Source of the DNA: a bacterium UBP13_UBA5359
Lineage (GTDB): Bacteria > UBP13 > UBA5359
Direction of reading: 5' to 3'
Length of the DNA: 30,339 nt
NCBI GenBank assembly: GCA_002410925.1
Contig: DHPR01000029.1
Location: 62,001-92,339 of the forward strand
Shown here: piece by piece, positions 12,259-30,339 of the stretch
Layout: each line of letters starts with the position of its first letter
Numbering within the stretch: position 1 is the first letter of the stretch
The notes under the pieces: model-generated
Seen by the model: the letters and a program-made list of their open reading frames with translations, nothing else
What the model was told of the DNA's origin: nothing
Database searches by the model: none
Made by a program: the position numbers and the translations under genes

Positions 12259-12294
12259 TCGCTACCATTTTACATGATTTATAGAAATGCTCTT

Positions 12295-12474: not shown

Positions 12475-12881
12475 TGCTGCCGAGCCATCGCTGCTAAAAC
12501 ATTCAAAACCAGCGCAGTTTCCTGCTCTTCCATGGCTCTCAGATAGGTGCTAAAACATTTATCAGGTGTTGAAAAGAACTTCTTTATCCTGATCTCGCTG
12601 GAGCGGATCATCTCCTCAGCAACAGAGATAAGATCGGCGTTTGTTTTAGGCCCGGCAGGCACTTGAATACCTACAATACAGTTATCCAGAACAAAGCACT
12701 CCATCGGCATACTGTTGGCTACACACATGCAACCGTAATGTTCGGTCAGCAATGCACTTTGATCGGCCTCAATCCTGGCACCGGCTGAGACATAAACCTC
12801 CATATCTTTGCTTGCCGAGGTTCTATCGGCACAGTAGTAGACTATTATGCGTTCTTCCTGAGTATAGGCATAGGTGCGCAT
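12471..12881 (-). CDS. Hypothetical protein
   Basis: 136-codon ORF with protein-like composition; no family recognised; start uncertain. Confidence 0.4.
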   Translation of the reverse strand: MRTYAYTQEERIIVYYCADRTSASKDMEVYVSAGARIEADQSALLTEHYGCMCVANSMPMECFVLDNCIVGIQVPAGPKTNADLISVAEEMIRSSEIRIKKFFSTPDKCFSTYLRAMEEQETALVLNVLAAMARQQ

Positions 12882-13186
12882 AGCTATGGCAGATGGAAAT
12901 TACAGCACTGAGACTTTATCAAGTTTATTCGGCAGATCGAAAGGCAGGCTTATTCCCTCCAGCATAGGGTGCTGCGATGTTATCATGGACATAAAGCCTA
13001 GCATTTCCAGCCGGGCAATACATCTTCCCGGCAAAGAGAGTACGAGTAGACATAAAAACAGAAGAACAACGCAAATGCTTGCTTGCAACTATCCTGCCAA
13101 TTCAACATGCCTCCGGCAGATAATTCCTGGTTGAGAAGTGGCTGAATACGGGTATAAATTAGAAAAACCTTCAGGAGGATACGGTT

Positions 13187-13594
13187 ATGCAGCATGACGA
13201 ATTTATCGGCCAGGTACAACATAAAGCTAGATTGGCTTCGCGGGGAGAGGCAGAAAGAGCGACGCGAGCTACGTTGGAAACGCTGGGAGAGCGTCTCTAC
13301 AATGATACTACCGATAACCTGGCAGCCCAGTTGCCGCCAGAGATAGGCCGTCATCTTCAAGAGAGCGGCGATTACCATAAATATTCATTAGATGAGTTCC
13401 TGGAATGTATCAAGAATCGAGAAGGAGAAGGTGTCGATCTGCCGGATGCCGTTCACCATGCCAGAGCGGTCATCGCTGAGCTGGAAGAGGCTGTTTCCAA
13501 AGGGCTTATCACGAAGGTCCGCAATCAATTGCCGCCGGAATACGGGCGCCTATTCGAAGCCGGCAGTGAAGGAGAGATGCCGCCGGAACGATGA
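13187..13594 (+). CDS. DUF2267-family protein
   Basis: MQHDEFIGQVQHKARL...AERATRATLETLGERL...LAAQLP...HARAV...VRNQLPPEY..LF; AGGAGG RBS. Confidence 0.92.
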   Translation: MQHDEFIGQVQHKARLASRGEAERATRATLETLGERLYNDTTDNLAAQLPPEIGRHLQESGDYHKYSLDEFLECIKNREGEGVDLPDAVHHARAVIAELEEAVSKGLITKVRNQLPPEYGRLFEAGSEGEMPPER

Positions 13595-13661
13595 AAATTA
13601 TATACTCCTTCATCACCAGCTTCCCCGCTGTTCTAAAAAGGACGGCTGCTAAAGGAAAAGG

Positions 13662-13697
13662 AAAAGGCGCCCTTTTGGGGCGTTCACACAGGGATTT
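13662..13697. repeat. Left attachment junction
   Basis: Host arm AAAAGGCG (13662-13669), TT core (13675-13676), 7 nt, element arm TCACACAGGGATTT (13684-13697). Confidence 0.8.
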
Positions 13698-13730
13698 ATA
13701 AAAAACTTGTGTGACAGCTTCAAGCGAGGT

Positions 13731-13786
13731 AAAAAAGAGACCAGTCTGCATGAGCTTAATTGCTTGGCATGACTGGTCTCTTTTTT
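13731..13786. terminator. Bidirectional intrinsic terminator ending the defence operon
   Basis: Perfect 16-bp inverted repeat AAAAAAGAGACCAGTC / GACTGGTCTCTTTTTT overlapping the stop codon at 13785-13787. Confidence 0.85.
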
Positions 13787-15266
13787 ATATTTTAACATTT
13801 GATGCTGAAGCCTTGTTGTCCGTTGCATCAATTAGAATGATATCTCGGCAATCATGTAATTTCAACTCATTCAATATGTTTGTTATTTTGCCGTGTTCTT
13901 CATCTGTGAAAAACAATATGACTTTTATTGCTCGGTCGGTGTTATTCGCCTTTTTGTATATTTCGACCTGTTTAGCAAGGTTGTTTTTTAACTTGCTATT
14001 TGATGCAAGCTTGAATTCAACAAGAGCAGTATTTTTTGATCCCTTTGATACTTTAAAATCGACAGGACCACGTCCATTATTGACTTCTCTATTAACGTCA
14101 AATTCACTTGCGAACCATACAAGCCGGTACATAATTTGCAAGTCGCTTTCACGGCGAAGTGGCTTCCCATCGATGTAAAATATACGATAGCAATCCATGT
14201 CCTCTATTGCTGATTTCAAGAACATTACACGCTTATACGCTTCCTCATAAGAATCTGCTTTTTCTTTGTAAAAATCTGTGCGACTATGCAGCAATTCGGC
14301 AAGTTCTCGAAGCTGCGTATTAAATAGCTGCTTTACCTCGCGCACTGCTTCCTTGCTTATGGATGTTGCATCTTCTTCGTTTAGCTCTTTGTGCTTTATA
14401 TAGTAATCAATTATTTCAGGGTATTCAGATATCAAGTCAGCAGCCGCTCTGTCTTTTTCAGTTTTTGACATTTCCTTCTTTTTCTTTGGTAGCACTTCAC
14501 GAAAATAATTATTCAGTGCGAATCGTATTGTCGCATCTTCAACTGAAGGAGCTATGTTCTGAAGATTTCCAATCATGTCGCTACGATTGATGAACGTATC
14601 ATCCCGTGTTAGTAAGTCTCTCGGAGTCAACAGAACATAATCGTTGTCAAAGCAGGGAAGGTAACATTCTTTAGACATCCATGTCATAGTTTCATAGTTA
14701 AATTCAACTTTTGGAACAATAAAAATTCGGCATTGGGAAGCATCCATATTTTCTGACGCAAATGCCGCTGTGTAATCCAGTAGGTATTTCTTGGCAAAAT
14801 TGGTCGTAAAATCGCTTATCTTATCGCGGCCGACTTTATGGCTGATAAGGCATAACTTTTCCAGATGCGAACTCTTCGTAATCGTCTCTTTTCCGAAATC
14901 TTTAAAAATAGTTTGTAAGCCACGATGAAGATTTTTTGCGAAATCAACACCTAATCCACGACCTGAATTACCATCCATACTGAATCCAATCCAAGTTTGC
15001 TTTACTTCTGGGAAAAGGTACCATGCGCCCATCATCCCCGCAGGTGGGGTTTGGTGCTTCTCCGCCTGCGATTGTAAGAACAGCAAATATGTGATTATCT
15101 CGTTATGGATAATCTGATATTCTTCTTTCTCGCTGTTAAAAAGCAAAAAAGGGTCAATAAACAGTGGCAGATCATTAATCAAAGAGATATTAATTGCACC
15201 ATATGACTCAACAACATCTTCATCTATTCCGAAAAAGTCAGAAAAGTATAGTCTTATACCACTCAT
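13785..15266 (-). CDS. Uncharacterised protein with C-terminal PD-(D/E)XK nuclease motif; candidate defence gene
   Basis: RESDLQ...REVNNGRGPVDFKVSKG...VEFKLAS pattern; N-terminal DLPLFIDPFLLF; last gene of the mod-res operon; AT-rich. Confidence 0.7.
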   Translation of the reverse strand: MSGIRLYFSDFFGIDEDVVESYGAINISLINDLPLFIDPFLLFNSEKEEYQIIHNEIITYLLFLQSQAEKHQTPPAGMMGAWYLFPEVKQTWIGFSMDGNSGRGLGVDFAKNLHRGLQTIFKDFGKETITKSSHLEKLCLISHKVGRDKISDFTTNFAKKYLLDYTAAFASENMDASQCRIFIVPKVEFNYETMTWMSKECYLPCFDNDYVLLTPRDLLTRDDTFINRSDMIGNLQNIAPSVEDATIRFALNNYFREVLPKKKKEMSKTEKDRAAADLISEYPEIIDYYIKHKELNEEDATSISKEAVREVKQLFNTQLRELAELLHSRTDFYKEKADSYEEAYKRVMFLKSAIEDMDCYRIFYIDGKPLRRESDLQIMYRLVWFASEFDVNREVNNGRGPVDFKVSKGSKNTALVEFKLASNSKLKNNLAKQVEIYKKANNTDRAIKVILFFTDEEHGKITNILNELKLHDCRDIILIDATDNKASASNVKI

Positions 15267-15286
15267 ATCATTCTCCTAAATCGAAT

Positions 15287-18253
15287 TCATCCTTGTGCCA
15301 GAACTTCATTGACTATCTGCACCATCTTCTTGTTATTCAATTGCTTGTGGAAATACACTGTATATCCGTCCTTTGAGAGCATATCAAAGAATATTTCGGC
15401 GCAGCCAATTCTCGCAATTTCCTCTTGACGTAAAACAGCTTTGTTTTCCACATCTTTTGTTTCGACCACAATATTCAATTCCTTTTCACCAGACGCTCGC
15501 TGCACGACATACATGAAGTCCGGGCTATACATCCCACCTGTGATTGTCGGTATTGCGATACTGCAACGCGGAATTTTGCCGTAAACAACGACCTCTGAAA
15601 TATCGGACTTGATGTTTTCCTGTTCCAGCGGTGAATCATAGGCAAAGGAATCAAACAAGTATTTCTTGCTAGGAGTACCCGGTGCAATCTTCGTGCCGAT
15701 ACGTCCTTGGGCAATATGTCTGCGTGGCTCGCCGTCCTCATAAGTTAAAGCGGTGGCCCCAATCGGGACATTACTCTTTTTATAGTGAAAGCGTCCTTGC
15801 AGATTTTTTATCCGCCATGCTTGGAATTCGGAGCAGAACACCGCGACGGTGCTTTCGTTGATATATTTCGGGTCGACGGCACCATGCCTATCGACATATG
15901 TACACAAGGCTTGGTGTAGGACAGTTATCGGAATATTTGTTGCTTTCATAATGCGCTTCAGAAATGCGCCATAGGCAATGGGGCGTGTGACCGCATACGA
16001 AACACCAGTGCCTGTGGCTGTGGTCATCTGCGAACCGTCGCTTTCGACGATGTCTCTGGTGCTGGTCATGACCACATCGGTGAAAACACCCTTTTGCTCA
16101 AGCAGCGACAAAACGATAGCGTCCATATCTGCATCCAAATCTGCGTCATAAAACAGTAAATACCGTTGATTGATTTTTTCCCACAGTTCTCGAATTTCGC
16201 TGTAGACGGCTTTGCGTATTTTGATGGGCTTTGACTTGGTAACATTACGGTCTTTGACCTTGCCGGAGGACAGCCCTATGGCAAAGTCGGGATACTCTGT
16301 AAAGAAAACGTCTCGCGTTTCTGGTTTGATATTATAATGCCTGTCGATATAATGCTTTTCGGCATACAGCGTGTCAAACAAATCGTCGGCGGTCACGCCC
16401 AGTTTCTTCGCCACCTGTCCGAGACGCTCCTCGCTGATAGAGGAGGCTTGCGGTATTTCGCCGTTTATCTGCTCGACAAGGCGTGTTGCAAAGTCGGCTT
16501 CGGTGAAATCTACGATGTAATTTAGCTGAAATTCCTCATTGGATATGCGGTTTCCGTTCTCATCCACGGGCAGACGTAGACCGCGTCCAACCTCCTGCAG
16601 CTTGCTATTATCACTACCGCTGGAGCGTAGTTTTGCTATCGTGAACACATTCGGATTGTCCCATCCCTCTTTGAGCGTCCATTTGGAGAACAGAAAACGA
16701 AGCGTATTATAACTGCCATCTTCATTTTTGAAGGACAGTAGCTGCTTTTTACCATGAAGAATCACATCGACCTCTTTTGCGATATCTGCGTCGGAATCGC
16801 TGTTGTCCTGCGAAAAATATCCTGCATGGCAAGCGGATAAATTAGTAAGGCTTGCTTCAAGATAGGAGCGGTATTCGCTATCATGTTCATCCAGTGTGTC
16901 TATCATCGCGTTTATGCGCTCTCTGAGCAGAAGCTCAAAGGCCAACAGCAGGTACGGCGATTTGCCCTCTGCATCGAGACGGTAGGATGTAATATCGTCG
17001 ATGAAAAACAGGGCAAGTGTTTTTATTTTAAATGTGCGATTACAAAAATTCTCCCGCTCCGTCTCAAAATGCCGTTCAAGAGCAAGCCGAATCATCTGCT
17101 CCTGATAGGAAGTCATATAGATATCCACATCCAGTTCCTCGCCCGTGACCTTTTTTATGCCGTTGGAAAACTCCACGGTGGAGGTGCTGATAGCGGAAAT
17201 GGTGATACCCTCAAAGGCATTGCTAATAATGGAAAGCGAATCGTCTGTCTTGAGCGTATAGGATTTTGTGGTTTCATCGCGCCGCTTATATTGAAACGAA
17301 ACAGAATCTCGGCTGGCAATCGAAGTTATTTTCACTTTTTCATCCCGCTTGGAAACGGGCTCAAAATGTTCCTTTGCTACACCCTTTATGAGGTTTTGAT
17401 TAAAGGAATCGCAGGCGTTCAGGTCATATAACAAGTTTTGATAGTCCTTGACCGTTATTTTGTTCTTGCCACGTCCGCTGCTCGTCTCCGGGAAGGTTGC
17501 GCCAAAGCGGATAATGCACTGAGGTTTTATTTCATCAGTGATGACCGAGAAAGCCTTTTGATCTCGTGAGAATCGGTGCGGTTCGTCTATAATGACAAAC
17601 GGGCGTGTGGCTTTCAGCGCGTCTAACGGGCGGTAGAATCCCTCTGCACCATAATCATAATCGTCACGACTAAGCATTCCGTTTTTTTTCACTACAAGCA
17701 GATGCATGTTGACCAGCATAATATAAATCTTCTTAGAATTCTGGCAGGAGCCCTTAACAAAGTCACTGACCACACTTGGAAAATAGGAGCGTCCTTTTTT
17801 CTTATTTTTCGGTGCTTCAAGGACACCAACCTCAATTTCGGTGCCGTACCCGCAGCCGTCCGTAAAATGTCGTCTGGCGTATTCGTCCTGCAAAAACTGC
17901 GCTGTTCCGGCTTTAATGGCAAGCGACGGTACTGCGATGATAAATTTGTTGATGCCGTACCGCTTATGAAGTTCAAACATCACTTTTGTGTAAACATAGG
18001 TCTTGCCCGTACCAGTTTCCATTTTAATATCCAGATTGAGACAATCGCGGGTAGGCGCACCTCCGCGATACTCGGCGGGTACGCTCTCCTGTAGGGCGCT
18101 GATATTCGCAGCAAGGCGCGGGTCAGCAAGGGCAATGTGCGGATTTTCATAAAACTGCGTCGGTGTTGTAATCGGCACACCATCAAAAGCGGCACATACC
18201 GCATCGACAGCTTTTTGCTGGTGGGGCAATTCTTTCTGAAGAATTAGTTCCAT
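15287..18253 (-). CDS. res: Type III restriction endonuclease subunit (EcoP15I/EcoPI-like)
   Basis: METGTGKT Walker A, IDEPH, LKEGWDNPNVF, QEVGRGLRL, C-terminal YSPDF...VETK nuclease; start MELILQK behind GGGAGGGTGA. Confidence 0.95.
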   Translation of the reverse strand: MELILQKELPHQQKAVDAVCAAFDGVPITTPTQFYENPHIALADPRLAANISALQESVPAEYRGGAPTRDCLNLDIKMETGTGKTYVYTKVMFELHKRYGINKFIIAVPSLAIKAGTAQFLQDEYARRHFTDGCGYGTEIEVGVLEAPKNKKKGRSYFPSVVSDFVKGSCQNSKKIYIMLVNMHLLVVKKNGMLSRDDYDYGAEGFYRPLDALKATRPFVIIDEPHRFSRDQKAFSVITDEIKPQCIIRFGATFPETSSGRGKNKITVKDYQNLLYDLNACDSFNQNLIKGVAKEHFEPVSKRDEKVKITSIASRDSVSFQYKRRDETTKSYTLKTDDSLSIISNAFEGITISAISTSTVEFSNGIKKVTGEELDVDIYMTSYQEQMIRLALERHFETERENFCNRTFKIKTLALFFIDDITSYRLDAEGKSPYLLLAFELLLRERINAMIDTLDEHDSEYRSYLEASLTNLSACHAGYFSQDNSDSDADIAKEVDVILHGKKQLLSFKNEDGSYNTLRFLFSKWTLKEGWDNPNVFTIAKLRSSGSDNSKLQEVGRGLRLPVDENGNRISNEEFQLNYIVDFTEADFATRLVEQINGEIPQASSISEERLGQVAKKLGVTADDLFDTLYAEKHYIDRHYNIKPETRDVFFTEYPDFAIGLSSGKVKDRNVTKSKPIKIRKAVYSEIRELWEKINQRYLLFYDADLDADMDAIVLSLLEQKGVFTDVVMTSTRDIVESDGSQMTTATGTGVSYAVTRPIAYGAFLKRIMKATNIPITVLHQALCTYVDRHGAVDPKYINESTVAVFCSEFQAWRIKNLQGRFHYKKSNVPIGATALTYEDGEPRRHIAQGRIGTKIAPGTPSKKYLFDSFAYDSPLEQENIKSDISEVVVYGKIPRCSIAIPTITGGMYSPDFMYVVQRASGEKELNIVVETKDVENKAVLRQEEIARIGCAEIFFDMLSKDGYTVYFHKQLNNKKMVQIVNEVLAQG

Positions 18254-18266
18254 AATCACCCTCCCA

Positions 18267-20303
18267 TCAATAACGGACATCGAAATTGACACGAAGATTT
18301 TTTTCCGTATCCTTCAGCCGTTTCAGATTTATTTGAAGTTGCTCGGTTTCAGTCCATGTGAAGCTGTAGCCAAACAGCACCACATTCTCCGGGTTAAAGC
18401 TGCCGTCCGTCTCATATTTCACGACAATCGCTTCAATTGCCTCTTGTGACAGTTCCGGGTCGATGAGGTACAGGTGTTTGCCAATGTAATAGCCCTTGTA
18501 TCCGGAAAGGTCGAATTCCTCCACAGGAGCGGTGAAGCCGTATCCGTCCCGAACAAGCCATGTGGCGAGAACAGTAGGTTTTCCAAAATCGTCAAGAACC
18601 GTGTTTTGTATGTACATACCACTTTCATCGGGCTTGAATAGTTCCAGCTTGTCCAGAGTATTTTCGGACGGCTCGATAAGAGTGTAATGCTTAAATCCGA
18701 GGTCTGCGGTGGTATCTGGGTTGCTTTCTTTTATTGCTTTTGCGGCGCGGATAATGCGCTCCATTCCAAGTTGGTCAAGTGTGTGGGGGCGATTCACCGA
18801 ATCAAGGAATGTTATAAGTTTCTCGACTTTTTTCTTATCTTCTCCAGTTGCCTTCCCATATGAAGAATCAAGATTTTCCGGCAATTGAACCATTATATAA
18901 TTAAAAGATTTGCCCAATGCATTACTCCGCATAACTGCTTCTGCAGTAGTTGCGGAGCCAGAAAAGAAATCGCATATTAACATTTTATTTTGCTGTAATG
19001 AAGCGATAAGCTTCATAATTAAAAGCACTGGCTTTGGATAACTCATAAGAGACTGTTGCCCAAATAGAAGACGTTGTTCCTCATCAGCATCTTCATTCGA
19101 TCCCCAACCACTTGATTGCAAATCATCAAAGTTGAAATTATAGGAATATCCTGTAGTGCTCGAATCGCCGAGTCGTAATAATAAATCCTTGAGCCCCTTT
19201 TCTCGTGGTTCCTTAACAATGCGACGCAAATAGAGATCGCGTGTAATATATAGTTCTCCATTATTAGCATACTCGGTCATTGAGTCTTGCCCGTATCGCC
19301 AATTTCCCTCTATTGTTAATTCCTGTGCTAAAACACCGTTTTCAATAACTAAATCTGATAACAAAAGCAAATTCATAGTGGTATCAGAAATAATCTCTCC
19401 CTTTTTCATTACATAATTTTGCTCACGATATTTGCTTTGTATTCCGGATGGAATTATTCGTATATCTCTACTGTTTGTAGCGTTTACACAGGGATAAGTT
19501 TCCTCTGCACTGTTAATTTGCCCAATAAGACCGGTAAATGCTGTTTTATTCTTAGCGTATACGAGCACATATTCTTTAATGTTTGTTATATCGTTTGCAA
19601 GGTATGAGCCTTTCTTTTTCTTTTCCCATACCAATTCAGATACAAAATTTTCTTCGCCGAACACATCGTCACATAATATTTTAAGATTATGCCCCTCGTT
19701 ATCATCAATTGAAATAAATATGACACCATCATCCGTTAGCAAATCACGTGCCAGCAGAAGTCTCGGATACATGAACATCATCCACGATGAGTGCGACGCA
19801 GAGCCGCGCTTTGTTAAATCCAGTATGCGCCGCGCTTGCTCTTCGTCAATGCTCAGTTTTGCGGAAAGTTCTTCGGCGGTAAAATTGAAGCTGTCGTTAT
19901 AAACGAAACCATCAGAACCAGTGTTATACGGCGGGTCTATGTAGATACATTTCACCTTTCGAGCGTAGGATTTAAGCAAGTGCTTCAAGCCATCCAGATT
20001 ATCACCGCTAATATAGACGTTCTCGCTGGCAGAATTCTTCGGCTTTTCATTATGCTCCTCATTCGGCACAATCACAGTAGTCGTATCCACGGAGGCAAGC
20101 AGACGTGCATAATTCTTGCCGAGAAATTTCAGTTCGTATCCTTCACTAGTGACAGTAACCTTATCGCTCAGAAACTCTTTGAAACGTTCTATATCAAATG
20201 TGCCGTCCGGGTGAAAACATGACGGGAAGTTTTCTTTCAAAATCGCCATCTCGCGGCTGTTGGGAGCTGCGCTCTCATTGGCGGCAATAATATCCTTAAT
20301 CAT
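18267..20303 (-). CDS. mod: Type III R-M DNA methyltransferase subunit (beta class)
   Basis: GDNLDGLKHL, YIDPPYNTG (motif IV), central TRD, YPKP, DFFSGSATTA (motif I); start MIKDII behind GGAGGGGG. Confidence 0.95.
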   Translation of the reverse strand: MIKDIIAANESAAPNSREMAILKENFPSCFHPDGTFDIERFKEFLSDKVTVTSEGYELKFLGKNYARLLASVDTTTVIVPNEEHNEKPKNSASENVYISGDNLDGLKHLLKSYARKVKCIYIDPPYNTGSDGFVYNDSFNFTAEELSAKLSIDEEQARRILDLTKRGSASHSSWMMFMYPRLLLARDLLTDDGVIFISIDDNEGHNLKILCDDVFGEENFVSELVWEKKKKGSYLANDITNIKEYVLVYAKNKTAFTGLIGQINSAEETYPCVNATNSRDIRIIPSGIQSKYREQNYVMKKGEIISDTTMNLLLLSDLVIENGVLAQELTIEGNWRYGQDSMTEYANNGELYITRDLYLRRIVKEPREKGLKDLLLRLGDSSTTGYSYNFNFDDLQSSGWGSNEDADEEQRLLFGQQSLMSYPKPVLLIMKLIASLQQNKMLICDFFSGSATTAEAVMRSNALGKSFNYIMVQLPENLDSSYGKATGEDKKKVEKLITFLDSVNRPHTLDQLGMERIIRAAKAIKESNPDTTADLGFKHYTLIEPSENTLDKLELFKPDESGMYIQNTVLDDFGKPTVLATWLVRDGYGFTAPVEEFDLSGYKGYYIGKHLYLIDPELSQEAIEAIVVKYETDGSFNPENVVLFGYSFTWTETEQLQINLKRLKDTEKNLRVNFDVRY

Positions 20304-21168
20304 CGTTTCCCCCTCCATTATCGTCAGGCAGCTTCCCAGCTTGCTGAGCCATCTTTTTTTCCTGCGTTTTTACACGACGTTCCAACTTCTTTATATCCTC
20401 TGATGGCGGCAACTCTTCTGGTTTAATGCCACGCTGCCCGAGCATTGCACGGACAGAACGATTGTTTTGAGTATGCTCATCTGTAATTGGCGTTTCGCCA
20501 CGCAAATCCTTTTCTTCAACATTGTAATTGGTCATTTCAGTCGCAAGATTCTTTGCCGCGATTGATAATGTGGGCAAAAAATCTGCCAGAGGACGATTAT
20601 CTTTCACACCGAGTATCGCCTTCATATCCTGTGTGGTATAGCCGCCAAATAGTGCACGATCACCCTTAGAACGAATGCGCCCAAAACCAGCATCATCAAC
20701 CCCGCGTTCATATATGTTTTGCGATAAACGTTTTTCGGATTCTTTCAGACGGCCACGGGCTTCTGTCCGTTCGATATAGGCGATACGATCTTCAATCAAT
20801 TCTTGCTTTCTTGTCTGGAAAGCAAAATAGCTCTGTGCAAATGCAATTTCCTCTTTTTTTGGATCACCGTTTTGAGCAATTAAATAGCAAGCATAACGAG
20901 TTAATATATAGTCTTTTACTTCGCGCTTTGAACCACTGCCTAATTGAACCATTTTCGTGACCTCACGAAAATGGTCTGACACTTCTATTCCTGTGGCTTG
21001 ACAGGAATCAACTGCGCGTGAAATTGCTTTATCAAAATTCTCCCATCGCTCATAGCCAAGTAAAGGCATGAGTTCTCTGGCAAACCAATATTCGATATTT
21101 CCATCTTCAATACTGTGAACAACAATATCAAACTGCTGTTTTATCAATGCAATACGCTTTTTATCCAT
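20296..21168 (-). CDS. dinD: DNA-damage-inducible protein D family (BRO-N-like N-terminus)
   Basis: EYWFARELMPLLGYERWENF, LTRYACYLIAQNGDPKKEEIAFAQSYFA, GIKPEELPPSEDIKKLERRV. Confidence 0.93.
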   Translation of the reverse strand: MDKKRIALIKQQFDIVVHSIEDGNIEYWFARELMPLLGYERWENFDKAISRAVDSCQATGIEVSDHFREVTKMVQLGSGSKREVKDYILTRYACYLIAQNGDPKKEEIAFAQSYFAFQTRKQELIEDRIAYIERTEARGRLKESEKRLSQNIYERGVDDAGFGRIRSKGDRALFGGYTTQDMKAILGVKDNRPLADFLPTLSIAAKNLATEMTNYNVEEKDLRGETPITDEHTQNNRSVRAMLGQRGIKPEELPPSEDIKKLERRVKTQEKKMAQQAGKLPDDNGGGNDD

Positions 21169-21407
21169 TATTCTGCCTCCGCAACATTCTTTTTCTCAGT
21201 GTTATTCGGCACGAATTCCATTATGTCTTCCACATTGACTCGCAGCGCAGAGCCTATTTTAAGCAACACGTCCATGCTAACATTCTGGTGCTTAGACAGC
21301 TTCGCCACGGAAGATGGGCTGATTTTTGCAAGAATTTGCAAATCCTGCTTATTCATATCTCGGTCTATCAATAACTTCCACAGCTTTTTATAGCTTACGA
21401 CCAGCAT
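21168..21407 (-). CDS. Xre/Cro-C1-type helix-turn-helix regulator
   Basis: VSYKKLWKLLIDRDMNKQDL...ISPSSVAKLSK...VSMDVLLKI...VEDIMEFV; GAGGTGG RBS; stop overlaps the dinD start. Confidence 0.92.
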   Translation of the reverse strand: MLVVSYKKLWKLLIDRDMNKQDLQILAKISPSSVAKLSKHQNVSMDVLLKIGSALRVNVEDIMEFVPNNTEKKNVAEAE

Positions 21408-21437
21408 TGTACCACCTCGCATATCATATTAAATTTT

Positions 21438-21498
21438 ATTATAGCATATAATCTTCGAGTTCGCAATAAATATCGTGTAAATTCGAATATAATATTCG
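21438..21498 (-). promoter_or_regulatory. Sigma70 promoter for the xre-dinD-mod-res operon plus a palindromic operator candidate
   Basis: Minus strand TTGCGA (21466-21461), 17 nt, TATAAT (21443-21438) with extended TG; palindrome CGAATAT-A-ATATTCG at 21484-21498. Confidence 0.75.
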
Positions 21499-21530
21499 GA
21501 TCATACTTGGACTACCCAATTATCAATCTC

Positions 21531-21567
21531 TGCGGCATCCGTAAAACATCGGATGCCGCATTTTTTT
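21531..21567 (+). terminator. Intrinsic terminator upstream of the replication module
   Basis: TGCGGCATCCG / CGGATGCCGCA 11-bp stem followed by T7. Confidence 0.88.
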
Positions 21568-21578
21568 GTGTGTCTTGG

Positions 21579-21955
21579 TACGAATTTACCTTCTGCCTGT
21601 CCTGTACGAGGTGAGGGGGTTTACTTCTGCCGTTCTCGTGGCCTACCTGTAAAGGCAAGAATTTTTCATAAACAGGTGTATAAAACAGCTTCTAAATCTC
21701 CGTATAGCGTAAGAACAAAAGAGTTTTCTCGTTTCACTACGGATTTAGCCATGTGCCTGTCCAGTAGGAAGTGAGGAGCAGGAAATATAGGTCGACACAT
21801 GTGGGTTAATATTTTCGGCTTATAGCAGAGGGGTAAAAAGAAATTTTTAAAGATTTCGTTCAAACAGTCTCTTAAGCTCCAGTGGTTAGTGGAAAGGGAA
21901 TTTTTCAAAGCACCCCATTAAAACAGCCTGTTTTTATCCGTACCTTGTGAGGCTA
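21579..21955 (+). promoter_or_regulatory. Non-coding array of about seven imperfect promoter-like motifs
   Basis: 21579-21618 and 21738-21778 match at 33 of 41 aligned positions; three further units start AAACAG (about 21682, 21862, 21920); units end in GT(G/A)A(G/A)-type purine tracts. Confidence 0.5.
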
Positions 21956-21987
21956 CAAAAATACAAACCCCGGAAGGAAGTGAACAA

Positions 21988-24318
21988 ATGCAATACGACA
22001 ATCTGCCAAAGGAGCTGCGCGACAACGGCGCATTTTGCCTGTGGAACTATGAAGAGCGCAAAGGACAGGTAAAACCTGCAAAGGTGCCTTATCAAATCTG
22101 TGGCAAGCGTGCGCAGTCAAACAATGAATGTACATTTTCCAGTTACTCTGACACAGTCGCGGCGGTGAGTAAATATAACGGTCTGGGGCTTGGTATATTT
22201 CGTGGCTTTAGTGCCGTGGACGTAGACCACTGCATTAATGCGAACGGTACGCTGACCGATATCGGGCAATCCATCGTGGACATATTTACAGGCTGCTACA
22301 TCGAGAAAAGTCCCTCCGGCACCGGCCTGCGTATCCTTTTTAAGGCAACGGGCTTTAAATACGATATCGCAAAGTACTACATTAATAACACCAAACTCGG
22401 CGTTGAGGTGTACGTTTACGGCGCGACAAAGAAATTCGTGACCGTTACGGGCAACGTCTACCAGCAGGGTGATATTCTTGAAGCTGAGGCGCATCTGCAA
22501 ACGCTTCTCGATAGTTTTATGATTCGAGCAGTAAAGCCGAGCGAGAAATACAGCTCAGAACAACAGCCCGCAGTGGCGGCCTCCTATCTTTCAGATGACA
22601 GCGTCATTGAAAAAGCGAAAGCGGCAAAAAATGGAGCGGCGTTTGCAAAGCTCTGGGAGGGTGATATCAGCGGATACCCGTCACAGAGCGAAGCCGACCT
22701 TGCTTTCTGTTCCCACCTTGCGTTCTGGTGTGGTAAGGACATAGCACAGATGGACAGGCTGTTCCGGCGCTCTGGTCTTTACCGTGACAAGTGGGACAGA
22801 CCACAGAGCGGCTCGACCTACGGACAAATCACTCTTGGAAAAGCGGCATCGCTCTGCGCAACTGTCTATCAGCCAATCCTGCACACCGATGCAAATGAGG
22901 ACTTCGGTATTCTAGCGCCGAGGTTGGCAGAACTGAAGCCGGACAGCAATAGACGCTACGGCTGGTCGGACAGCGGCGCAGGGCGGCTTTTCGCGGACGT
23001 CTACAAGCCTTACGCAAGATATGTGCCGGAGCGGAAGGTCTGGTACGTCTATGACGGCACCCGCTGGGTCACTGACATGGCAGCTCTAAAGGTAATGGAA
23101 CTGTGCAAAGACCTCTCGGACGCTCTTATGACATACGCGCTCAGCATCCACGATGAGCATAAGCGAAAAGACTACATTAAATATTGCGCCAAATGGCAGA
23201 TCCGCGGTGTTCGAATTACAGTCCTGAACGATGCGCAGAGCGTGTATCCCATTTCAATGGAGGATTTCGATACTGACCGGTACCTGTTCAACTGCAACAA
23301 CGGAACATTGGATTTACGCACCATGCAGTTTCGCGACCACAGCCCGGAGGACAGGCTTACCAAAATCGCACCTGTGAAATATGATCCGAGCGCCGCGCGC
23401 CCCCGCTTCACCAGCTTCATCGATGAAATTATGAGTGGTGATAAGGAAAAGGCGAAGTTCCTGCAAAAGGCTCTCGGCTATGCGGTCAGTGGGGATACCC
23501 GTTTCGAGTGTATGTTCTTCCTTTACGGCGAAACGACCAGAAACGGCAAAGGCACTCTAATGGAGAGCATCCTGCGTGTGTTCGGGGATTACGGGAAAGC
23601 GGTGCGCCCGGAGACCATTGCGCTCAAGCAGTACAGTAATAGTTCAAACCCCAGTGAGGATGTCGCAAGGCTAGCGGGTGTGCGCTTTGCCAACATCTCC
23701 GAACCGAGCCGTGGATTGTTACTCAATGCCGCGCAAGTAAAAAGCATGACGGGCAACGATACCTTAAACGCGCGCTTCCTGCATGAGAACTCCTTCGATT
23801 TCGCTCCGCAGTTTAAGCTGTATGTCAACACCAACTATCTGCCTGTCATTAACGACATGACGCTGTTCACCAGCGGGCGTGTGCTGATAGTCCCGTTTGA
23901 CAGGCATTTTGAGGAATGGGAACAGGACAAGACGCTGAAAGCAGAGTTCGGCAAGCCAGAGACGCAGAGCGCCATCCTCAACTGGCTGCTTCAAGGTTAC
24001 ATTATGCTCCGCAAAGAGGGTTTCACCATGCCACAGTCGGTAATAGATGCGACATACGAATATTCCCATGACAGCAATAAAATCCAGCTATTCGCGGATG
24101 AGCACCTTGAGGAGCGGGGTGATGCCGATGTAAAGACCGCCGATGTGTACGCTGCCTACCGTGAATGGTGCGGTATAAACGGCTGCTACCCGGAGAGCAA
24201 TCGCAACTTCAATCAAGCACTGCGCTCCTTCGGTACCGTCGTTCGCAAGCGCCCTGCCGATGGCGGGGAGAAGACCACATTGCTCATCGGCTACAGGCTC
24301 AAAAAGACGTTTTTATGA
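21988..24318 (+). CDS. Primase-polymerase / SF3 helicase fusion (NrS-1-like primpol plus P4/D5-family helicase)
   Basis: DVDHC and EKSPSGTGL primpol motifs; SQSEADLAFCSHLAFW...MDRLFRRSGLYRDKWD helical bundle; D5_N region; GETTRNGKGT Walker A; KSMTGNDTLNARFL. Confidence 0.93.
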   Translation: MQYDNLPKELRDNGAFCLWNYEERKGQVKPAKVPYQICGKRAQSNNECTFSSYSDTVAAVSKYNGLGLGIFRGFSAVDVDHCINANGTLTDIGQSIVDIFTGCYIEKSPSGTGLRILFKATGFKYDIAKYYINNTKLGVEVYVYGATKKFVTVTGNVYQQGDILEAEAHLQTLLDSFMIRAVKPSEKYSSEQQPAVAASYLSDDSVIEKAKAAKNGAAFAKLWEGDISGYPSQSEADLAFCSHLAFWCGKDIAQMDRLFRRSGLYRDKWDRPQSGSTYGQITLGKAASLCATVYQPILHTDANEDFGILAPRLAELKPDSNRRYGWSDSGAGRLFADVYKPYARYVPERKVWYVYDGTRWVTDMAALKVMELCKDLSDALMTYALSIHDEHKRKDYIKYCAKWQIRGVRITVLNDAQSVYPISMEDFDTDRYLFNCNNGTLDLRTMQFRDHSPEDRLTKIAPVKYDPSAARPRFTSFIDEIMSGDKEKAKFLQKALGYAVSGDTRFECMFFLYGETTRNGKGTLMESILRVFGDYGKAVRPETIALKQYSNSSNPSEDVARLAGVRFANISEPSRGLLLNAAQVKSMTGNDTLNARFLHENSFDFAPQFKLYVNTNYLPVINDMTLFTSGRVLIVPFDRHFEEWEQDKTLKAEFGKPETQSAILNWLLQGYIMLRKEGFTMPQSVIDATYEYSHDSNKIQLFADEHLEERGDADVKTADVYAAYREWCGINGCYPESNRNFNQALRSFGTVVRKRPADGGEKTTLLIGYRLKKTFL

Positions 24319-24319
24319 T

Positions 24320-24407
24320 GGGGCACTCTGTGGCAAGAAATTATGGTTATTCCCTATAGAAAAACGATATCAGCAAATAACCATAAAAACCTGCCACAAG
24401 TGTCCCC
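24320..24407. repeat. Long imperfect inverted repeat, candidate replication origin
   Basis: GGGGCACTCTGTGGCA..TTATGGTTATT mirrored by AATAACCATAA..TGCCACAAGTGTCCCC around an AT-rich centre, immediately after the primase stop. Confidence 0.65.
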
Positions 24408-24500
24408 AAGGCGAAAAGGAGGTGGTGCCTTTGATTGCACTGATACGGCATTCAGAGGAATGCGGACTGTGATTCAAATAAAAACGAAAGGAAAAACACT

Positions 24501-24743
24501 ATGAAAAACACAAAGATGTACCCGGCAATGCAGCCGAGTGATTTCGACTGCCAGGGCTATGAAGGTCGGTTTCTGTTTCAAACGAATGATGGCAGACCTG
24601 TTGTACTAGCTCAGTACAATGACCCCGACCGCGCTATATGGCGCGTCATGTTCGGCACGTCTTCGGTGTTCTTTGGAACATACGGAGAGGCAATGGAATA
24701 CTGCAAAGCGCGCTTTTTAAGCAGAAGCGGCAAGCCGCTGTGA
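24501..24743 (+). CDS. Small hypothetical protein (80 aa)
   Basis: GAAAGGA RBS, co-oriented in the module, protein-like composition. Confidence 0.7.
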   Translation: MKNTKMYPAMQPSDFDCQGYEGRFLFQTNDGRPVVLAQYNDPDRAIWRVMFGTSSVFFGTYGEAMEYCKARFLSRSGKPL

Positions 24744-24758
24744 AGATTGGAGGCAATC

Positions 24759-24986
24759 ATGCGAATCGCAAAGTATTTCAAAGATTTCATTTTCCGCAAA
24801 TGCAAACACAGCACCTACGGAACGCTGCACTTGGTAGGCTCTACCGGAGAACCAGTGACGGTAACAAAGGAAATCCGTTACAACATCTCAAGAAGCGCAT
24901 CGACAGTACACATCAACAGCTACCCAGACCTTGCGGAGTTTTGCAAGAAAAGCGGATACAGAACGGCGGATGGCAAAAATCTGTAA
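24759..24986 (+). CDS. Small basic hypothetical protein (75 aa)
   Basis: GGAGG RBS before ATG 24759; follows the previous ORF closely. Confidence 0.65.
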   Translation: MRIAKYFKDFIFRKCKHSTYGTLHLVGSTGEPVTVTKEIRYNISRSASTVHINSYPDLAEFCKKSGYRTADGKNL

Positions 24987-24994
24987 GCCTGCGC

Positions 24995-25090
24995 CCGGTG
25001 GGGGCGGTCAAATCTCCACAACTTTTCATCTCGGACAGCGGCGTGGGGCAACGCGCGTGAAAACGCGGTTTCAAACGGGGTAATAGCCCC
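24995..25090 (+). other. Putative cos-type packaging site
   Basis: Non-coding GC-rich GTGGGGGCGGTCAAATCTC...GGACAGCGGCGTGGGGC..CGCG; from recall this resembles the HNH-terS intergenic region of HK97-type Firmicute phages; not verified by search. Confidence 0.5.
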
Positions 25091-25121
25091 TAATCAAACA
25101 AAATTCAGGAGGATAACAACA

Positions 25122-26036
25122 ATGTTAGCAAATGAAACTTATTCCAGAGCGTTCTGGAACAGCATGAGAAACAAAAATACTGATAACAGCATGCTCGAAG
25201 AAGCTGTAAATCGTGCCAATGGCTCATATTTCCTGCCCGAAGCATCAGCGGAAAAATATGCAGCGGCATTGGCGAAAGAAAACCTGTTCCGCACAAGGGC
25301 TACATTCGTGAGAGCGACAACGAGCAGCGGCAGAATTATCACCTCGGATACTCCTGTTGATGCGGACTGGGTTAGCGAAGGAGGGACAGTACCCGAAGCG
25401 GAGCTGGTGGCAGACAGAATCGCTCTGGGCGAGCATAAGCTCGCTTGTATCTCGGTACTGGATAGCGATTTTGTCCATGATACAGGCTTCAACATCTCTG
25501 ACTATCTGCCACGCGATTTCGCCCGTGTTTTCGCTAAAGCGGAGGAGGATGCATTCCTCAACGGTGATGGTGTCGGAAAGCCCAAGGGTCTCTTGCACGC
25601 CACAGCGGGTGCTGATGTAGGCGTAACGGCAGCTTCGGCAACGAATATCGCCTTTGATGAAATTCACAAGCTGTACTTCTCGCTAAAGCCGGAATACCGT
25701 TCCAATGCGATATGGGTCATGAATGACGAGACTGCGCTCGGATTGCGCGACCTTAAGGACAGCACCGGCAACTATCTCTGGCGCGGTGCGGCGGACACGC
25801 TGCTCGGCAAGCCTGTGGTTATTTCCAATCACATGCCCTCTGCGGCAAGCGGCACAAAGCCAGCCCTGTTCGGTGACTTCAAGTACTACTGGGTCGTGGA
25901 GCGGCAGCCGCTGTCCATCAGGGCACTTCACGAAAAATACTCCTTTGCCAACAAGGTAGGATATCTCGGTATAGAAACGCTGGATGGCTGCCTGATTCGC
26001 TCCGAAGCGATCAAGGTTCTCCAAATGGCTGAATAA
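25122..26036 (+). CDS. HK97-fold phage major capsid-family protein with shortened N-terminus
   Basis: GSYFLPE, ADWVSEG, EEDAFLNGDGVGKPKGLL, NAIWVMND, LKDSTGNYLW, TLLGKPV, FGDFKYY; AGGAGG RBS; 304 aa. Confidence 0.93.
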   Translation: MLANETYSRAFWNSMRNKNTDNSMLEEAVNRANGSYFLPEASAEKYAAALAKENLFRTRATFVRATTSSGRIITSDTPVDADWVSEGGTVPEAELVADRIALGEHKLACISVLDSDFVHDTGFNISDYLPRDFARVFAKAEEDAFLNGDGVGKPKGLLHATAGADVGVTAASATNIAFDEIHKLYFSLKPEYRSNAIWVMNDETALGLRDLKDSTGNYLWRGAADTLLGKPVVISNHMPSAASGTKPALFGDFKYYWVVERQPLSIRALHEKYSFANKVGYLGIETLDGCLIRSEAIKVLQMAE

Positions 26037-26045
26037 CAGCAATGC

Positions 26046-26079
26046 GCGGTGCTGGGTCTGCACTCAGGCTCAGTACCGC
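26046..26079 (+). other. Strong hairpin after the capsid gene, without U-tract
   Basis: GCGGTGCTGGGTCTG-CACT-CAGGCTCAGTACCGC, 15-bp stem with G-U pairs. Confidence 0.55.
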
Positions 26080-26109
26080 CATCCATAACATAGATGGGAG
26101 GTGTCGCTT

Positions 26110-28067
<1,958 letters not shown>

Positions 28068-28077
28068 CAGGGATATA

Positions 28078-28112
28078 AAATCCCTATGTGAGGACAGCTT
28101 CCGACGCCTTTT
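28078..28112. repeat. Right attachment junction
   Basis: Element arm AAATCCCTATGTGA (28078-28091), 7 nt, TT core (28099-28100), host arm CGCCTTTT (28105-28112). Confidence 0.8.
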
Positions 28113-28117
28113 TTATT

Positions 28118-28297
28118 CTATTCACGAGCTTCGTATACCCGTGAATCTTTGTTTTTTACTCTGCTCTTTGCCAGAGCAGCTTCAAGCGCAGTCGCTTCCT
28201 CGGGAGTCATCGCTTTAAGCTCCCGCAGCAGAGGCCAATTTTTTACGTCCGTATTATAAAGCGTAACAATTTCTATTGTTTTTTTACCATTCATCAT
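28118..28297 (-). CDS. Unannotated 59-aa protein at the CRISPR trailer
   Basis: GGGGGTGA RBS, ATG, MMNGKKTIEIVTLYNTDVKNWPLLRELKAMTPEEATALEAALAKSRVKNKDSRVYEARE, stop just before the reconstructed terminator. Confidence 0.65.
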   Translation of the reverse strand: MMNGKKTIEIVTLYNTDVKNWPLLRELKAMTPEEATALEAALAKSRVKNKDSRVYEARE

Positions 28298-28313
28298 CTA
28301 AAATCACCCCCAA

Positions 28314-30339
28314 ATAGGTAGTATCGGAACTGGTGCTGTGCGCGTGCGCAGCTAAAGGCCGGCGCAGTTTCAATTCCTTATAGGTAGTATCGGAACGGGA
28401 TAGAGGATATCATAGCTGCCGCACAGGACGAGTTTCAATTCCTTATAGGTAGTATCGGAACAAACAAGGACTGGGGCGATACCTATCACGATTGGGAGTT
28501 TCAATTCCTTATAGGTAGTATCGGAACCGGCAGGCCTTTTTGCGGGCTTAGCCCGCCATGCCCGGTTTCAATTCCTTATAGGTAGTATCGGAACTGAATG
28601 CACAGCCAACAGCCTGAAAGAGGCTGTTGAGGTTTCAATTCCTTATAGGTAGTATCGGAACAACCTTGCAGAAGCAAACCTTGCAGATGCTTACCTGGTT
28701 TCAATTCCTTATAGGTAGTATCGGAACCTAACAAGCGCATACATTCAGCTTGATTTCATTCTGAAGTTTCAATTCCTTATAGGTAGTATCGGAACTCGGC
28801 CATCATTTGCCTTGTCATACGACCATATTCAGTTTCAATTCCTTATAGGTAGTATCGGAACTGAAGGCAGCGGAAGCAGACATAAAGTCCATATTTGAGT
28901 TTCAATTCCTTATAGGTAGTATCGGAACGTATTCGCACATGAGGAGGAAAGATCATGACAGGAAAGTTTCAATTCCTTATAGGTAGTATCGGAACCCGCG
29001 CGTAACCTCTCACACCGTCAGCGAGAGAGCCAGTTTCAATTCCTTATAGGTAGTATCGGAACGGAAGGACGGGCAGCGTAAAACTATCAGCGAAGTAGGT
29101 TTCAATTCCTTATAGGTAGTATCGGAACCTGAAAAAGATTGCCATGATATGCGGAGAGGAAGCCAGTTTCAATTCCTTATAGGTAGTATCGGAACTATCA
29201 GACCTATGAAATTACCGATGTTTACGAAGTCGTTTCAATTCCTTATAGGTAGTATCGGAACACAGAGCCAGAACGATTGCAGCTATATCAGCACTCGTTG
29301 TTTCAATTCCTTATAGGTAGTATCGGAACGCCAATCCGCTTGGCTTGTATGTTCTGAAATCGTTCTGGTTTCAATTCCTTATAGGTAGTATCGGAACCGC
29401 TATCTGCAATATCGCCATCAGCAGTTCTTGTTACGTTTCAATTCCTTATAGGTANNNNNNNNNNNNNNNNNNNNNNNNNNNNNNNNNNNNNNNNNNNNNN
29501 NNNNNNNNNNNNNNNNNNNNNNNNNNNNNNNNNNNNNNNNNNNNNNNNNNNNNNNNNNNNNNNNNNNNNNNNNNNNNNNNNNNNNNNNNNNNNNNNNNNN
29601 TCCTTATAGGTAGTATCGGAACTGTATAAGCCCATAGGCTTCACGGATGATGGGGTTTGTTTCAATTCCTTATAGGTAGTATCGGAACACATTTGCTGGA
29701 TGGCGTCGGCCGATATTGTAGGCAGTTTCAATTCCTTATAGGTAGTATCGGAACGGTTCAGCGCAAAGGACAAGACCCCTTTGAATTCAAGTTTCAATTC
29801 CTTATAGGTAGTATCGGAACGGCGTTGGAACGATTGAACGCATGATGGGGGTGAACGTTTCAATTCCTTATAGGTAGTATCGGAACGCAAGATGAAAGGT
29901 TCATTCAGTGTGGGGGTTGATGGTTTCAATTCCTTATAGGTAGTATCGGAACGGAAACCAAAGACCGAACAGCCTTTGACGAATACGGGTTTCAATTCCT
30001 TATAGGTAGTATCGGAACTTTCTGCACCGAAGAACACAAAATCAGGTTCTTTGACGTTTCAATTCCTTATAGGTAGTATCGGAACGGTGGTGGCTGATGG
30101 TGATGTAAGAACCTTATCCTTGTTTCAATTCCTTATAGGTAGTATCGGAACAAGCCACAAGCGCATTCATCGAATCGGACAGAAGAAGTTTCAATTCCTT
30201 ATAGGTAGTATCGGAACGCAATGCCCATACAAGTACAAAATGCGATACATTGAGTTTCAATTCCTTATAGGTAGTATCGGAACCGGTGATACAGGTACTT
30301 TTGAGGATGTTCCACATGGGTTTCAATTCCTTATAGGTA
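28314..30339 (-). CRISPR. CRISPR array, 30-bp repeat GTTCCGATACTACCTATAAGGAATTGAAAC; trailer end at left, continues beyond the window
   Basis: 30 visible repeat copies (one truncated terminal copy, three cut by the N gap or the window edge) and 28 readable spacers of 35-38 nt. The ATTGAAAC 3' end and the degenerate left copy give minus orientation. Repeat style fits Cas6-processed type I-B/III arrays; no cas genes are in the window. Confidence 0.98.
29455..29600. other. Assembly gap (146 N) inside the CRISPR array
   Basis: Run of N flanked by partial repeats. Confidence 1.

Follow-up and report, generated by a model that had tools for sequence, protein, structure and literature searches.

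The tycheposons of Prochlorococcus resemble phage-inducible chromosomal islands (PICIs) and carry an integrase, a primase, and a lone major capsid protein (MCP) gene; they were found in viral-fraction metagenomes, according to the portions of the report consulted (Hackl et al., 10.1101/2020.12.28.424599). The consulted portions of three further sources describe a lone capsid gene on PICIs of Gram-negative bacteria (PMC6893505), Ccm of SaPIbov5, a satellite capsid homologue of 355 amino acids (aa) that has a cleavable delta domain at residues 1–87, forms the pentamers, and reshapes helper heads (PMC8569155), and capsid-forming PICIs (cf-PICIs) such as EcCI2, which encode their own HK97-type capsid (10.1101/2022.09.08.507074). 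phiRv1 and phiRv2 of Mycobacterium are counted as PICI-type satellites by SatelliteFinder, as far as the excerpted source tells (PMC10085698). Here, we analyzed a 30,339-nucleotide stretch of contig DHPR01000029.1 from the bacterium UBP13_UBA5359 (assembly GCA_002410925.1), hereafter the window, in which a 14.4-kb integrative element carries a gene encoding a 304-aa (about 33 kDa) HK97-type capsid protein that has no delta domain. All positions are those of the window unless a related locus is named.

Small self-replicating genomic islands of a widespread family share this short capsid protein as a conserved hallmark; judging from sequence, these islands probably ride in the heads of other phages. 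We favor, with a probability of about one half, the reading that the gene is the capsid gene of a PICI-like satellite, whose scaffold-less subunit would enter the head assembly of a helper phage and give small heads for the island.

A capsid protein without a delta domain

The original prediction, made from the nucleotide sequence and its open reading frames (ORFs), held that this protein lacks most of the delta (scaffold) domain, with only about 30 residues preceding its GSYFLPE motif. Pfam Phage_capsid (PF05065) matched the protein with an E-value of 2e-67 (227.8 bits; cut-off, 24.2); residues 34–301 spanned positions 1–279 of the 280 profile positions, and 33 residues precede the motif. NCBIfam TIGR01554 (major_cap_HK97) matched with an E-value of 6e-73 (246.2 bits; cut-off, 27.5), and this match began only at position 86 of 385; therefore, the delta part of the model is absent from the protein. 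PHROG 10 (major head protein) also matched (E = 2e-64). The ORF begins at the first possible start of its frame, with no in-frame ATG, GTG, or TTG upstream, and the strong ribosome-binding site foreseen for the gene is in place (Table 1).

To define the missing part, we aligned the window protein with 19 other short homologues and six full-length relatives (393–415 aa). The full-length relatives carry approximately 95 extra N-terminal residues, helical-looking and with much charged, heptad-like sequence, that make up the scaffold (delta) domain. Each of the 20 short forms begins a few residues ahead of a Y..AFW..MR motif common to the full-length forms, and a 5-residue loop after W220 is missing from them. 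About 85–95 N-terminal residues are thus missing from the short capsid protein. Since the short forms equal the full-length forms minus the N-terminal part and this loop, the aligned sequences show the protein to be a near-exact counterpart of what remains of a delta-bearing prophage capsid protein after maturation.

The AlphaFold2 model of the protein had a predicted local distance difference test score of 88.5 and a predicted template modeling score of 0.85. The top Foldseek matches of the model were all capsids of phages, gene transfer agents (GTAs), or cf-PICIs: the best match in PDB was the Rhodobacter GTA (RcGTA) capsid 6tb9 (E = 3e-23; 33% identity), and further top matches were Mycofy1, T5, EcCI2 (9gyi), and HK97 (1ohg). 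The Foldseek probability was 1.00 against the capsids of RcGTA, T5, HK97, and SaPI1, and the model shows the HK97 fold with its N-arm, E-loop, and P and A domains. According to this model, the protein is a complete HK97-fold shell subunit. Sequence and fold place it in the HK97 capsid family, but two usual features of that family are missing, namely the delta domain and the head-module context.

A delta-less HK97-fold protein could also self-assemble into a small closed shell with protein cargo, as in an encapsulin-like nanocompartment; the fold, the independence of a scaffold, and the similar length would fit, and one encapsulin family is said to fall under PF05065. However, there was no match to Linocin_M18 or another encapsulin family of Pfam at E ≤ 0.01, and encapsulins were absent from the chains matched in the PDB profile search (E ≤ 0.01) and from the listed top 50 Foldseek matches. 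No conserved enzyme gene was recognized next to the capsid gene, its neighbors being the replicase gene, small ORFs, and the TnpW and recombinase genes. Nothing supports membership in the encapsulins, and we consider a nanocompartment very improbable.

We calculated the ratio of nonsynonymous to synonymous substitution rates (dN/dS) for 11 intact 304-codon genes (the window gene and those of loci L002–L011). In the 50 of 55 pairs whose dS was 0.05–3, dN/dS was 0.08–0.22 with a median of 0.13, and none of the 11 genes contained a stop codon; relaxed selection and frequent stops, which by the original prediction would have refuted its idea, were thus not found. The length is equally constant: 115 of the 120 best matches among 3,077 homologues were 299–317 aa, and when 1.84 billion cluster representatives were searched exhaustively with phmmer, the top 14 of the 15,024 matches were all 302–324 aa.

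A quick IQ-TREE phylogeny (LG+G4) with support from the Shimodaira–Hasegawa-like approximate likelihood ratio test (SH-aLRT) was built from the window protein and 92 of 150 listed representatives, whose rows span query residues ≤14 to ≥297; 58 partial rows were dropped. One branch with 95% SH-aLRT support had 47 of the 56 short forms and none of the 37 long forms on one side, so the short forms are not nested among ordinary prophage capsids, and the idea of the original prediction survives this second refuting condition as well. The nine short forms on the long side comprised a clade of four, a clade of three with N-terminal extensions of about 30 residues, and two singletons. The minimum number of changes between the short and long states was 3, compared with a mean of 29 after shuffling, and the short forms make up a large clade, in which dozens of clusters at 50% identity can be counted. 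This distribution indicates that the loss of the delta domain is old and was mostly a single event, followed by wide diversification.

The gene might be taken for an inert remnant of a decayed prophage head module, because the capsid gene is the only head gene left and two related loci carry partial capsid deletions. The low dN/dS without stops, the conserved length, the size of the clade, and a gene order fixed across distant subfamilies contradict this, and decay is hardly credible as an explanation. The short capsid clade is old, diverse, and kept by selection.

The two partial deletions, at approximately 10348–10704 in locus L033 and 10001–10348 in locus L036, are independent of each other, and both remove the 3' part of the capsid gene, the TnpW gene, and the 5' part of the recombinase gene. 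The protein P0035 represents such a capsid–recombinase fusion ORF. These loci are probably immobilized, decaying copies.

Genomic context and structure of the integrative element

We scanned 17 loci whose capsid was at least 44% identical to the window protein and 14 loci at 36–43% identity, counting only loci with enough flank. Among the former, a serine recombinase gene lay downstream in 11/12, tnpW in 11/12, and a primase gene upstream in 12/14, and head-module matches were found at 0/17. The loci at 36–43% identity, which encode full-length capsids, had head-module matches in 13/14, a count that is partly circular because three of these 14 loci supplied the head-module queries, and a primase or recombinase gene in none. 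A profile of the short clade was then run over 185,579 species genomes and gave at least 586 relatives confirmed by tblastn, most or many of which are expected to be of the short form; 80 loci were kept, 79 of them near-full. In this wider set, the recombinase was downstream in 54/64, TnpW downstream in 50/64, and the primase upstream in 55/62, and head-module matches were again absent (0/79). Loci that depart from this pattern combine the short capsid with a tyrosine integrase (Tn916-type or other), with another kind of serine recombinase, or with a replicase of the DUF3987 type. Therefore, the capsid is tied to a replicate-and-integrate lifestyle and not to one recombinase.

For the flanking genes, we tallied Pfam families in 116 of 119 large unexplained ORFs; 73 families matched, and the 25 commonest, which were examined, are for the most part R-M (restriction-modification) and integrase families. 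N6_Mtase (18), HsdM_N (14), Methylase_S (13), Phage_integrase (9), and Eco57I (8) led the tally, and no portal, terminase, relaxase, or coupling-protein family was among these 25. Cargo in the flanks of loci L143–L222 was mostly of R-M type (Type I HsdM/HsdS, Type III, and Eco57I-like). From this gene content, the family looks like one of dedicated R-M carriers. In its RefSeq annotation, plasmid pPM400 of Bacillus badius likewise has a primase, a 'phage major capsid protein', TnpW, and a recombinase beside a Type III R-M system.

The homology of the window to related loci begins near 13677–13680 and ends at 28100, and in the genome of a sister species (G001) both flanks lie 83 bp apart, which represents the empty site. 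TT was found at the left and right junctions. These limits and the empty site together delimit the element (Table 1), and its length of 14,426 bp agrees well with the DNA of about 14 kb that the predicted small capsids were thought to fit. The P' arm at the left end is an inverted repeat of the P arm at the right end; such inverted half-sites at the two ends are as expected for the attP of a serine recombinase. The flanks are two halves of a terminator-like hairpin, and the left and right flanks of L033 and L036 are likewise complementary arms. Since the left end of the element brings a replacement arm, the upstream host gene keeps its hairpin.

Right ends were compared for the window, L002–L007, L033, L036, and L082. 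The insertion target was the loop of intrinsic-terminator-like hairpins: the end motif located nine right flanks, in the window and eight loci, and in 9/9 a T run follows a GC-rich arm. Just inside the left end, at 13700–13788, a second copy of the right-end half-site (…TGTGTGACAGCTT…) is followed by a perfect hairpin with a 15-bp stem; this block is conserved in five loci and may be an accessory recombinase site with a terminator. An Rfam scan of 12000–30339 found only CRISPR (clustered regularly interspaced short palindromic repeats) repeats. The CRISPR array, at 28367–30339, starts 266 bp to the right of the element end and has at least 27 copies of a 30-nt repeat and a masked N stretch at approximately 29400–29650; its 25 readable spacers did not match the element or the fetched element and phage loci. 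The chromosomal genes in the window include those for N-methyl/DUF1559 pilin-like and FG-GAP proteins.

The right half of the element is a single-strand operon of genes for a primase-helicase (approximately 777 aa), two small ORFs, the capsid protein, TnpW, and the recombinase; the left half holds defense cargo. The core, of approximately 6.5 kb, consists of the helix-turn-helix (HTH) repressor, the P4-type primase-helicase, the capsid protein, TnpW, and the serine recombinase, and the element reaches 14.4 kb because it carries R-M and other defense genes. The repressor gene and the primase operon are divergent and 565 bp apart, and homologues of the regulator hold the same position in many related loci. 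Our promoter and terminator scan, which performed at chance level overall, gave a promoter-like site at 21466–21438 and, between the two genes, the strong terminator-like hairpin with a T run at 21531–21560 (plus strand), which could be an attenuator of the core operon. Neither of the two small ORFs ahead of the capsid gene occurs in the closest relatives L002–L007; in distant subfamilies (e.g., L170, L178, and L182), different ORFs of about 100 aa lie directly upstream of the capsid gene. The true start of the recombinase may be slightly downstream of the listed TTG. In metagenome run X2, one contig joins 13734 to 15298, that is, the left end to the Res gene, and represents a variant without the 493-aa protein gene.

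Table 1 Features of the integrative element in the window.
Feature	Position	Strand	Basis
HK97-type major capsid protein without delta domain, 304 aa (central finding)	25122..26036	+	Profile, alignment, selection, tree, and structure evidence
AGGAGG ribosome-binding site of the capsid gene	25107..25112	+	9 nt before ATG
Complete integrative element (14,426 bp), inserted within the loop of a terminator-like hairpin of the host	13675..28100		Homology limits, empty site
attL: host hairpin arm, TT core (13673-13676), element P' arm, conserved 110-bp non-coding block with strong hairpin	13650..13790		Alignment of five loci, motif scan
attR: terminator hairpin downstream of recombinase gene; P arm (end, ...GACAGC-TT at 28100), followed by 3' arm of the host hairpin with T run	28040..28125		Junction comparison
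Cargo: 493-aa protein related to defense candidate PDC-M36A, accessory gene	13785..15266	-	PADLOC PDC-M36A (E = 1e-19); no Pfam match
Cargo: Type III restriction endonuclease (Res)	15287..18292	-	Pfam ResIII, RE_endonuc; PADLOC REase_III (E = 6e-257)
Cargo: Type III methyltransferase (Mod)	18267..20318	-	Pfam N6_N4_Mtase, T3RM_EcoP15I_C; PADLOC MTase_III (E = 1e-156)
Bro-N domain protein, defense candidate PDC-S13	20296..21168	-	Pfam Bro-N (E = 5e-12); PADLOC PDC-S13 (E = 2.5e-119)
Cro/C1-type HTH regulator, divergent from core operon, putative master repressor	21168..21422	-	Pfam HTH_26 (E = 1e-15)
Putative divergent control region with terminator-like hairpin before primase gene	21423..21987		Promoter/terminator scan
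P4/D5-type primase-helicase (replication)	21988..24318	+	Pfam NrS1-1_pol-like_HBD, D5_N, Pox_D5; TIGR01613 P4-family primase (E = 5e-68); PHROG DNA primase (E = 7e-166)
Two small accessory ORFs (80 and 79 aa)	24501..24986	+	No family match; presence varies across loci
TnpW family small protein	26101..26313	+	Pfam TnpW PF14202 (E = 7e-15)
TnpX-type large serine recombinase	26291..28039	+	Pfam Resolvase, Recombinase, Zn_ribbon_recom, DUF4368; PHROG integrase (E = 2e-92)

Proposed route of transfer and its alternatives

In the reading that we favor, the divergent repressor would be lifted, probably by an infecting or induced helper phage, and the single operon would express replication, capsid, and excision functions together. 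The scaffold-less subunit would then enter the head-assembly pathway of the helper, either co-assembling with the delta-bearing capsid protein of the helper or using its portal, protease, and terminase, and would bias assembly towards small shells sized for island DNA of 6.5–15 kb. For packaging, this DNA would rely on the terminase of the helper, and for delivery on its tails, a cost borne by the helper. The architecture is satellite-like: a repressor faces the replication–capsid–excision operon, and an integrase, att sites, and defense cargo are present on islands of 6.5–15 kb. The element shows PICI-like traits, with an integrase, defined att sites, a length within the trait range of 10–20 kb, a divergent repressor, and a lone capsid gene.

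Several observations weigh against this reading. The delta domain is needed for assembly in HK97, which leaves the assembly route of a delta-less subunit unexplained. In two of the 22 close loci (L033 and L036), the capsid and recombinase genes have been joined by deletion, the former keeping its 5' part and the latter its 3' part, and the capsid gene is therefore not indispensable for persistence. No helper is known for the element family, and no cos site, pac site, or terS gene was identified for the element. Pfam and PHROG scans found no portal, protease, or terminase gene near the capsid gene in the window, as the original prediction had said of portal and protease, and the host genome (2.25 Mb, 98.4% complete), which has only this one capsid gene, gave no match to Phage_portal, SPP1_portal, TerL_ATPase, Terminase_6N, Terminase_3, or Peptidase_S78, so that no helper is found there. 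Contigs of 4 of 20 public runs gave no circular junction and no empty site, a result that is uninformative because contigs cannot show rare forms.

The host distribution weighs in the same direction, since the host ranges of tailed phages are usually far narrower. We compared loci L187–L217, a subfamily whose 296-aa capsid is 44% identical to the window protein. DNA of this subfamily was 93.5–97% identical to the copy of Clostridium aromativorans over up to approximately 6 kb in isolates of Aneurinibacillus and Ureibacillus (Bacilli) and of three further Clostridium species, Haloimpatiens, and Anaerotaenia (Clostridia), and 90% identical in a Bacillus isolate. The range of 93.5–97% also held for copies in metagenome bins labeled Caldisericales, Saccharibacteria, and Micrarchaeota, the last being a 2.7-kb contig that may be mis-binned. 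Cultured carriers of the family are C. aromativorans WLY-B-L2, Haloimpatiens lingqiaonensis KCTC 15321, Aneurinibacillus aneurinilyticus ATCC 12856, and B. badius NBPM-293 (on plasmid pPM400). On the strength of their DNA identity, these copies imply recent transfer over very large taxonomic distances. The window copy is 84–88% identical in DNA to copies in Bacillota bins, yet its host belongs to a different, very small phylum, represented in the GTDB-based collection by three genomes of one genus, the other two of which are without the capsid gene.

With such cross-class and cross-phylum identities of 84–97% and no helper in the host genome, the islands might move without phages, by conjugative mobilization, transformation, or vesicles, and the capsid-like protein might have another role, such as coating or protecting replicating DNA or regulation. 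The Pfam-defined module of TnpW and TnpX-type recombinase, which is that of the Tn4451 family of mobilizable transposons, also fits such a route. However, general family scans found no relaxase, coupling-protein, or Mob family and no oriT-type (origin of transfer) family among the element ORFs, and none appeared among the 25 commonest flanking families, although oriT itself was not searched for. To our knowledge, no non-capsid role exists for a full HK97 shell subunit, except in encapsulins. We consider phage-free transfer quite unlikely.

The cargo raises the further alternative that the protein serves defense only, as a dominant-negative decoy that joins the capsid protein of invading HK97-type phages in assembly and spoils the formation or maturation of their heads. 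This would shield the host population and thereby the island, and the protein would have no role in island transfer. The island is otherwise full of defense genes (Type III R-M, PDC-S13, and a PDC-M36A-like gene), the cargo of relatives is mostly R-M, the protein mimics the mature form without the part needed for ordered assembly, and the broad host spread suits phage-borne transfer poorly. Against this, the capsid gene is a fixed core gene beside the replicase and integrase genes and not variable cargo, and the protein had no match in PADLOC. In addition, purifying selection has strongly conserved both its N-arm and its shell fold as a whole, which suggests that normal lattice contacts are still made. 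Interference and piracy are also not exclusive, as Ccm does both according to the excerpts of the source (PMC6893505). A role in defense alone therefore seems unlikely to us.

A more far-reaching possibility, doubtful at present, is that a 'pre-matured' delta-less subunit defines a very large and, as far as our literature search shows, undescribed family of minimal elements of 6.5–15 kb, with genes for a repressor, a primase-helicase, the capsid protein, and an integrase, that build their own small-particle shell and borrow only portal, terminase, and tail from a phage, or even form a shell without any phage scaffold, and that have recently crossed classes and phyla with their R-M systems. If so, this would be a new satellite strategy between Ccm-type size redirection and cf-PICIs, with an unusually broad host range.

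Returning to the helper-dependent satellite, we looked for potential helpers and particles in public data. In all five other host genomes checked, an open frame of about 400 aa also encodes a PF05065 capsid protein and may belong to a helper; since such prophages are common, this is only compatible with the helper idea. H. lingqiaonensis KCTC 15321 has two copies of the island together with two full-length capsid genes. IMG/VR holds four close copies (L080–L083), and GenBank holds a 4.7-kb record from human feces, 'UNVERIFIED: Bacteriophage sp.', with 45% identity; an origin from purified particles could not be established for either. In the RNA-library run X20, contigs were 90–96% alike over the primase, capsid, TnpW, and recombinase genes, but DNA may be present and we did not count this as expression. 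Another contig of run X2 joins 21409 to 28026, from the start of the repressor gene to the end of the recombinase gene, and skips the whole 6.6-kb core, which is unexplained.

If the favored reading is correct, a common satellite family exists in anaerobic Bacillota and neighboring phyla that current satellite finders are not built to recognize. It would also be a natural experiment in capsid assembly, in which an HK97 subunit without the delta domain, thought essential, has nonetheless long been kept by strong selection. Whether this subunit assembles with helper subunits, as pentamers only, or alone bears on how capsid size is set. The elements carry R-M systems between distant bacteria and insert in terminator loops, which is relevant to the flow of defense genes in digesters and guts.

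Comparison with known satellites and transposons

A satellite-like island with a solitary capsid gene is of a kind already known. What we did not find in the literature are the delta-less monophyletic clade, the pairing with TnpW and a TnpX-type recombinase, the targeting of terminator loops, and the combination of R-M cargo with a very broad spread. Our literature search gave nothing on a capsid without the delta domain in the company of TnpW, a serine recombinase, or a P4 primase, which does not prove that the family is absent from print. Two papers that matched TnpW and capsid (PMC13195806 and PMC11076991) were irrelevant in the parts consulted, and following up Tn6215 led nowhere.

The ordinary HK97-type major capsid proteins of Clostridia prophages (L019–L034) belong to the same Pfam and TIGR families, are 36–43% identical, and share the N-arm motif. 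In contrast to the window protein, they are about 400 aa long, have the delta domain of approximately 95 aa and the extra 5-residue loop, and lie in TerS–TerL–portal–protease–MCP modules (TerS and TerL, small and large terminase subunits).

Tn4451-type elements share the TnpX-type large serine recombinase (DUF4368) and TnpW with the element. They differ in having a TnpZ-like mobilization protein and an oriT, whereas no Mob or relaxase family was among the scanned ORFs of the element, within the limit on oriT given above.

P4-like satellites are alike in having an integrase, a P4-family primase-helicase (TIGR01613), a head-size determinant (putative in the present element), and defense cargo. 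P4 itself uses the external scaffold Sid instead of a capsid homologue and has a tyrosine integrase. phiRv1 and phiRv2, which are about 10 kb long, resemble the element in that they combine an HK97 capsid gene with genes for a serine integrase and a P4-type primase; they also have a prohead protease and a terminase gene.

The cf-PICIs come close in the capsid itself, the EcCI2 capsid (PDB 9gyi) being the second-best PDB sequence match in our profile search (E = 2.5e-35). According to the excerpted source, they encode a whole head and packaging set and take only tails, whereas this element encodes only the shell subunit; membership in the cf-PICIs is rejected because a portal, a protease, head–tail connectors, and a terminase are absent.

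The original prediction proposed a Ccm-like redirector of capsid size or an assembly poison. This proposal is supported in part: the gene lies in a satellite-like setting, with a repressor, a P4-type primase, an integrase, att sites, and defense cargo, but helper dependence, co-assembly, small heads, and interference are putative, and the likeness to Ccm is only one of analogy. The short-clade profile matched the phi12 capsid chain 7rwz_B (E = 1e-4) and no other chain of 7rwz at E ≤ 0.01; we take this PDB entry to be the one holding Ccm. Because Ccm keeps its delta domain and the profile matched only the phi12 chain of that entry, membership in the Ccm family is rejected, and the window protein belongs to another branch of HK97-type capsids. 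The common ground is that Ccm, too, is a capsid homologue on a satellite without other head genes, and, as the consulted portions of the reports describe, it enters helper shells and alters their size (PMC8569155, PMC6893505).

The nearest parallel in overall design is offered by the tycheposons, which, in the consulted parts of their description, are likewise small integrative elements whose only virion gene is a single capsid gene, accompanied by integrase and primase/helicase genes, and for which hijacking of phage heads has been proposed. The same parts describe tyrosine recombinases, tRNA targets, and cyanobacterial hosts and report no extra cargo. In contrast, the element described here relies on TnpW and a serine recombinase of the TnpX type, targets a terminator loop, and carries R-M cargo, and its relatives are mostly in Bacillota hosts.

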